Positions 5,866 through 5,899 of a DNA stretch of 64,000 nt are shown piece after piece. The notes beneath the pieces are model-generated. The model did no database searches and was not told the DNA's origin. It was given only the letters and a program-made list of their open reading frames with translations. The DNA is from Escherichia coli (GTDB lineage Bacteria > Pseudomonadota > Gammaproteobacteria > Enterobacterales > Enterobacteriaceae): the NCBI RefSeq assembly GCF_029227855.1, contig NZ_CP074356.1. One strand, given 5' to 3'. Numbering within the stretch: position 1 is the stretch's first letter; each line of letters opens with the position of its first letter. The position numbers were made by a program, and so were the translations under genes.

Positions 5866-5875
5866 AATATTAACC

Positions 5876-5899
5876 ACTTTAGTTACAACATACTTTATT
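5876..5899. promoter_or_regulatory. Tus-binding replication terminator (Ter) site, TerB-like, in the tus promoter region
   Basis: Plus strand reads ACTTTAGTTACAACATACTTTATT; reverse complement contains the Ter core AGTATGTTGTAACTAAAGT; lies ~10 bp upstream of the tus start codon. Confidence 0.8.

Follow-up and report, generated by a model that had tools for sequence, protein, structure and literature searches.

A Ter site matching TerB in the tus promoter region of an Escherichia coli replication terminus, with a one-base insertion relative to K-12

The terB site is located in the tus promoter and Tus autoregulates, as stated in PMC8347550, PMC8707476 and PMC12809603; the repression of tus transcription by K-12 Tus through TerB is credited in these papers to Roecklein (1991/1992). 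The published position of TerB is 11 bp upstream of the tus start (PMC8707476). The C6 lock forms at the non-permissive, position-1 end of the site according to PMC8707476 and PMC4499146, and the first of these adds that the A-T pair at position 5, beside C6, is needed for the lock. TerF and TerH carry G5 on the C6 strand, a substitution proposed in the same paper to abolish the lock. Across phylogroups, Ter sites are described in PMC8347550 as variable at bp 1-5, 7 and 19-23 and conserved at 6 and 8-18. A tus-vicinal Ter with C6 is regarded in PMC8707476 as a conserved and probably ancestral arrangement in Enterobacterales, and the tus-vicinal Ter sites of other Enterobacterales (Salmonella, Yersinia, Proteus, Edwardsiella Ter1) bear C6 and lie just upstream of tus, as does the site reported here. 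Outside the Enterobacteriaceae, in traps of 'type I', it is the Ter next to tus that forms the innermost barrier, whereas the layout of the present locus and of K-12 has a TerC-like site further in.

The DNA analysed (the window) is a stretch of 64,000 nucleotides from E. coli contig NZ_CP074356.1. The published 23-bp TerB was used as the query across the whole 64-kb window, with up to 3 mismatches permitted. A single match was found, ATAAAGTATGTTGTAACTAAAGT at 5876-5898 on the minus strand, with 2 mismatches; no match was obtained in any of 100 dinucleotide-preserving shuffles of the window. The features of the locus were as follows.

4936-5865, minus strand: tus, encoding the terminus-site-binding protein Tus (309 aa), with its ATG at 5865-5863
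5866-5875, minus strand: spacer of 10 bp, GGTTAATATT, separating the tus ATG from Ter position 23, invariant in 8 strains
5876-5898, minus strand: the 23-bp Tus-binding replication terminus site assigned to TerB, position 1 at 5898 and position 23 at 5876
5893, plus strand: C(6), the base expected to flip into the Tus pocket at the unwound non-permissive end; it pairs with G(6) of the minus strand, and G6 is invariant in 8 strains
5942-7243, minus strand: rstB, upstream of tus, marking one end of the 76-bp rstB-tus spacer, where the promoter and TerB lie

The interval 5866-5899, in which the earlier note had recognized a Ter site in the tus promoter region, is made up of the 23-bp site, its 10-bp spacer and one additional base, and reads AATATTAACC-ACTTTAGTTACAACATACTTTAT-T on the plus strand. 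The distance from Ter position 23 (5876) to the A of the tus ATG (5865) is 11 bp. The alignment to published Ter sites suggested in that note gave 21/23 ungapped identities to TerB, with positions 4-23 all identical, so that the proposed site was borne out. G6 is present, positions 8-18 (ATGTTGTAACT) are identical to K-12 TerB, and position 5 is A on the Ter strand, hence T on the C6 strand. The full 23-mer is not that of K-12, the ungapped score of 21/23 being due to a 1-bp insertion; this departure is allelic variation at the same locus and not another site. The 8-bp core GTTGTAAC occurred twice in the window against 1.82 occurrences expected by chance, so the significance of the finding rests on the full-length match. 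Because the sequence, the 11-bp distance to the ATG, the adjacent tus gene and the synteny all agree with K-12, the site was recognized as TerB, and it is almost certainly the E. coli TerB that serves as fork barrier and tus operator. The arrangement is already known, and the current understanding of the system is unchanged.

The closest described counterpart is K-12 TerB (AATAAGTATGTTGTAACTAAAGT), which occupies the same locus in the tus promoter, at the same 11 bp from the ATG, and faces the same way with respect to tus, TerC, dif and oriC. No difference separates the two at positions 4-23, in the 10-bp spacer or at the start of tus. K-12 TerB differs in having AATAA rather than ATAAA at positions 1-5, a core 1 bp nearer the -10, another spacer haplotype and 8 of 309 Tus residues. 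The O157:H7 type (ATTAAGGATGTTGTAACTAAAGT) and SF-166 type (AATAAGGATG...) alleles keep G6, positions 8-23 and the 11-bp distance, as the window does, but they carry substitutions (T7G, A2T), whereas an indel sets the window allele apart.

The gene order around the site (manA, a fumA/B-type fumarase gene, fumC, tus, rstB, rstA, ydgC, folM) is that of K-12, reverse-complemented. Positions 4800-6100 were 100% identical to E. coli JNEC-KY178 (NZ_AP045174.1), and across the first 37.3 kb only 4 SNPs separated that genome from the window. The TerB-tus locus was found in 5,422 of 5,426 complete E. coli genomes. The remaining 4 had no match to the TerB-tus 72-mer, and one of the 5,422 matches was on a record typed as a plasmid.

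The product of the window tus gene is 97% identical to K-12 Tus. It matched Pfam PF05472 ('Ter protein') over the entire model with an E value of 2.5e-136, and PDB entries 1ECR, 2EWJ, 2I05 and 2I06 with an E value of 1e-202. The eight substitutions relative to K-12 among the 309 residues are I23A, H27E, H116R, K119Q, H126R, I151L, A221T and N225D. The residues which we take to form the cytosine pocket and the DNA contacts (I79, F140, H144, G149, R198, E49, K89, A173, K175, R232, Q250, H253 and R288) are all unaltered, and the eight substitutions fall elsewhere. At the codon level, 35 differences from K-12 tus were synonymous and 8 non-synonymous.

The DNA identity to K-12 was 95.0% for tus and 85.5% for the rstB-tus spacer, compared with 97.5% for fumC, 98.1% for rstB and 98.5% for rstA. 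The segment comprising tus and the spacer (4940-5941) is accordingly more diverged from K-12 than flanking fumC, rstB and rstA, and 1,328 of 5,424 E. coli genomes had 90-95% identity to the window over 4800-6100. These comparisons suggest that tus either evolves fast locally or undergoes recombination.

The non-permissive, position-1 end of TerB faces high window coordinates. The plus strand had an overall GC skew of +0.049, with the cumulative skew climbing across the window, and all five KOPS motifs (GGGNAGGG) were on the plus strand (5/5). The positive skew together with the 5:0 KOPS ratio identifies the plus strand as the leading strand, from which it follows that forks from oriC travel left to right and reach the permissive face of TerB. 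Chi sites favoured the plus strand 8:6, a bias too weak to be informative for orientation. The orientation in a full genome was checked in NZ_AP045174.1, the closest complete genome, the record of which begins at dnaA. The relevant features of that record are listed below.

NZ_AP045174.1 1, plus strand: dnaA (record start)
NZ_AP045174.1 2,393,952-2,393,974, minus strand: TerB
NZ_AP045174.1 2,501,942-2,501,964, minus strand: TerC-like site (22/23), ACATAGGATGTTGTAACTAATAT
NZ_AP045174.1 2,520,323-2,520,350, plus strand: dif, an exact match to GGTGCGCATAATGTATATTATGTTAAAT, adjoining hipBA

The TerC-like site, which differs from TerC at position 2 only, is 108 kb beyond TerB and in the same orientation; dif is 126 kb beyond TerB, and the cumulative GC skew of the genome levels off near it. 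This Ter/dif arrangement is the K-12 layout. The site is permissive to forks arriving from oriC and non-permissive to forks leaving the terminus, as in a fork trap. Both the assignment of the window to the replication terminus region, which had previously been made from the Ter site and is now also backed by the GC skew, the KOPS and the distances to the TerC-like site and dif, and the orientation check relative to oriC proposed with it gave the expected outcome, since oriC forks pass TerB. TerB places the window in the terminus region, on the replichore for which the window plus strand is the leading strand.

Two further elements on the minus strand, upstream of the site, were read as the tus promoter.

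5899-5907, minus strand: putative extended -10, TGcTATAAA, abutting Ter position 1 (read by eye)
5922-5927, minus strand: putative -35, TGGTCA, matching the consensus at 4 of 6 bases and separated from the -10 by 17 nt

On the tus sense strand, the arrangement is ...TGGTCA-(17 nt)-TGcTATAAA-ATAAA-G6..., so that the Ter site is both 11 bp before the tus start and abutting the putative extended -10, the position specific to TerB. Alignment of 8 strains showed no variation in the -35, in the TG of the extended -10 or in five of the six bases of TATAAA; the -10 hexamer had a single substitution, in one of the 8 strains. The 17-nt stretch between -35 and -10 held most of the differences in the rstB-tus spacer while remaining constant in length, and the window and K-12 differed there by 11 changes clustered at 5912-5920. 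Conserved -35 and -10 elements around a variable spacer of fixed length support the promoter assignment, although the exact -10 and -35 given here are putative. A consensus promoter scan of 4700-6100 listed no minus-strand promoter in the rstB-tus spacer, because it accepted only -10 hexamers with T in sixth place and the hexamer here is TATAAA. From these elements, tus transcription is predicted to start at about Ter positions 6-8, in which case bound Tus would cover the start site. Such coverage fits the terB-promoter overlap and Tus self-repression published in PMC8347550, PMC8707476 and PMC12809603. The autoregulatory context that had been suggested for the site was thereby upheld, as the site abuts the putative -10 and the same papers place terB in the tus promoter.

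The rstB-tus spacer at 5905-5948 (minus strand) contained two alternative hairpins, depending on haplotype. In the K-12/O157-type haplotype, a hairpin GCACGGTGGT-N9-ACCACTGTGC occupies the stretch that separates the putative -35 from the -10, with z = -2.1 in strain 10671. This hairpin is destroyed in the window haplotype, which has a perfect CCTGAC/GTCAGG stem spanning the rstB stop codon (z = -0.9). The C/T difference at 5943 and the G/A difference at 5920 look compensatory across strains (CCTGAC/GTCAGG versus CTTGAC/GTCAAG), with K-12 mixed.

The earlier note had remarked that its TerB sequence differed from the window by one extra T. The extra base proved real, an A-run having gained 1 bp: ACTTTATT occupies window positions 5892-5899, and its K-12 counterpart is ACTTATT; on the tus sense strand, the two are AAAATAAAGTATG and AAAAT-AAGTATG. 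In a longer alignment, AAAAT-AAGTATGTTG in K-12 corresponds to AAAATAAAGTATGTTG in both the window and JNEC-KY178. The TerB oligonucleotide published with its natural flanks, CAAGTCACCACGACTGTGCTATAAAATAAGTATGTTGTAACTAAAGTGGTTAATATTATGGCGCGTT (PMC4499146), is the K-12 sequence, so the extra base was present relative to this oligonucleotide also. Counted from the core, the window 23-mer is ATAAA-G6 and that of K-12 AATAA-G6; positions 2-3 alone differ, and A4, A5 and G6 through position 23 are unchanged by the insertion, which widens the distance between the putative -10 and the Ter core by 1 bp. The location of the insertion and the frequencies of the TerB alleles, counted as exact 71- or 72-mer matches among the 5,422 complete E. 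coli genomes carrying the locus, are given below.

5894-5896, both strands: TTT run, read as AAA in the tus sense direction, in which the 1-bp insertion falls; K-12 has TT/AA
Window allele with the insertion, exact 72-mer: at least 261 of 5,422 genomes, 4.8%
K-12 type allele, exact 71-mer: 2,319 of 5,422 genomes, 43%
O157:H7 type allele (ATTAAGGATG...), exact match: 1,237 of 5,422 genomes, 23%
Other TerB alleles: about 1,600 genomes, about 30% (by difference)

A sequencing error as the origin of the extra base was ruled out by the 261 independent complete genomes and by the linked distinct haplotype. The 8-strain alignment, comprising the window, K-12 and 6 others, contained four Ter alleles, and these agreed throughout at G6, at positions 8-23, in the 10-bp spacer and at the tus start. 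Variation in the site was confined to positions 1-5 and 7, a pattern that fits the variable (1-5, 7, 19-23) and conserved (6, 8-18) positions reported in PMC8347550. The insertion is a naturally occurring minority variant of the variable outer positions (1-5) of the site, and both functions are most likely intact. In descriptive terms, there are several natural TerB alleles, and one indel allele, in at least 4.8% of complete genomes, shifts the register between core and promoter by one base.

By analogy with K-12, a monomer of Tus from the adjacent gene would bind the 23-bp TerB. A fork approaching from the position-1 end (high coordinates) would unwind the G6-C6 pair, and the freed C6 (5893, plus strand) would flip into the Tus pocket, locking the complex and halting the helicase; a fork from the position-23 end would displace Tus. 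Forks moving right to left past the terminus that had escaped TerC would be stopped at TerB, which would serve as a back-up behind TerC. Tus bound at a site that abuts the -10 and covers the predicted start would turn the tus promoter off, giving negative autoregulation. Tus binding and polar arrest (PMC4499146, PMC8707476), the C6 lock and autorepression are established for K-12 TerB and should carry over to the window allele, because every position known to matter is identical. TerB and tus are a textbook case of a polar fork barrier that doubles as the operator of its own binding protein.

Other readings of the site were weighed against TerB as barrier and operator. A chance match, or a decayed and functionless Ter-like sequence, can be given next to no credence: its sole favourable point is the 2 mismatches to K-12 TerB. 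It is opposed by the absence of matches in the 100 shuffles, by the exact canonical position beside an intact tus and by a core that is invariant across alleles within a spacer only about 85% identical to K-12. It is also unlikely, if less so, that TerB is now mainly the tus operator with a marginal fork-barrier role, TerC, 108 kb further in, stopping nearly all forks. The TerC-like site between TerB and dif in NZ_AP045174.1, in the same orientation, does mean that TerB is not the innermost site, and PMC8707476 counts E. coli among the 'type II' traps, whose tus-vicinal Ter has another Ter further in. The same paper, however, describes significant pausing at TerB and refers to single-molecule work in which forks breached a Ter site about half the time, so that back-up sites would be used. 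Moreover, the G6/C6 pair, needed only for the lock, was invariant in all alleles seen among the 8 strains. A working barrier combined with the operator remains the preferred reading.

As a further rival, the insertion allele might be functionally different, with altered tus repression or lock strength leading to a different Tus level or back-up efficiency. The extra base falls between G6 and the putative -10, where transcription is expected to start; it is linked to a distinct spacer haplotype (the 11 differences at 5912-5920) and to a Tus with 8 substitutions, and its retention in at least 261 genomes from many groups shows that it is not a sequencing error. Against a difference, positions 4-23, including A5, G6 and the entire conserved core, are the same despite the insertion, and a 1-bp shift would still leave the predicted start site under Tus. 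TerE has TAAA at positions 2-5, matching the window allele, and the Tus residues that we take to contact DNA are unaltered. Positions 1-5 are, in addition, highly variable among functional ter sites according to PMC8347550. A functional difference was therefore considered improbable, and the chance that the insertion has any functional consequence at most as small. Smaller still is the likelihood that the +1 allele, the promoter-spacer haplotype and the Tus variant form a co-adapted set; if they did, Tus autoregulation might have a shifted set-point, or the back-up barrier a different efficiency, in a sub-lineage of about 5% of E. coli. The insertion allele is best regarded as a TerB that most likely retains both functions.

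Downstream of tus, the convergence with fumC was examined, and the following features were recorded.

3536-4939, plus strand: fumC, class II fumarase, convergent with tus
4936-4939, both strands: TTAA, the 4-bp fumC/tus overlap, formed by the fumC TAA at 4937-4939 (plus) and the tus TAA at 4938-4936 (minus)
4945-4997, plus strand: terminator-like hairpin within the last ~20 codons of tus, starting 6 nt past the fumC stop

The TAA stops of the two genes have two bases in common. The RefSeq annotation of JNEC-KY178 also has the 4-bp overlap, and it is identical in K-12 (tus 1684259-1685188, fumC 1685185-1686588); the overlap is an ordinary conserved trait of the species. The claim that fumC (plus) and tus (minus) end within 4 bp with overlapping stops was thereby corroborated. 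The accompanying statement that there was no room for terminators held for the intergenic space but not beyond it, since the hairpin at 4945-4997 sits inside the tus coding sequence. This hairpin has a G+C-rich 14-bp stem (4949-4962 / 4981-4994) and an 18-nt loop, and is followed by GUUUAU. An 86-nt stretch containing it folded at -33.5 kcal/mol (z = -3.6 versus shuffles), and the equivalent K-12 hairpin gave z = -2.6. Aligned to K-12, the 86 nt had 4 differences, 2 of which were inside the hairpin, in the loop and in the outermost G-U pair of the stem. The position and folding of the hairpin suggest that it likely ends fumC transcription. A terminator scan of 4700-6100 limited to loops of up to 8 nt passed over it because its loop is longer. 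On the minus strand, the stretch past the tus stop, inside fumC, showed no tendency to fold (z = +0.24). An intrinsic terminator for tus was accordingly not evident there, and tus transcripts probably run antisense into fumC or end by another mechanism. An Rfam scan of 3000-9000 at E ≤ 1 returned two sub-threshold chance matches and nothing else.

The window was also scanned with ten Ter sequences, and apart from TerB nothing scored above 13/16 in positions 6-21. The second copy of the GTTGTAAC core, at 30298-30305 (plus), belongs to the full site CGTACAGATGTTGTAACCATTGT at 30289-30311. In this site, A replaces G at position 6, and positions 18, 20 and 21 read C, T and T; it lies within the ynfE coding sequence and is oriented against the fork trap; it was rejected as a Ter and judged to be a chance occurrence.

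From ~37400 to 64000, the window holds a lambdoid prophage at the Qin position, with a G+C content of 40-47%. Its genes, following the annotation of JNEC-KY178, include an integrase, an excisionase, an exonuclease and homologues of dicB and ydfABCD. Past ~37.3 kb, the window diverges progressively from JNEC-KY178 inside the prophage, which indicates that the source strain has a different prophage variant.
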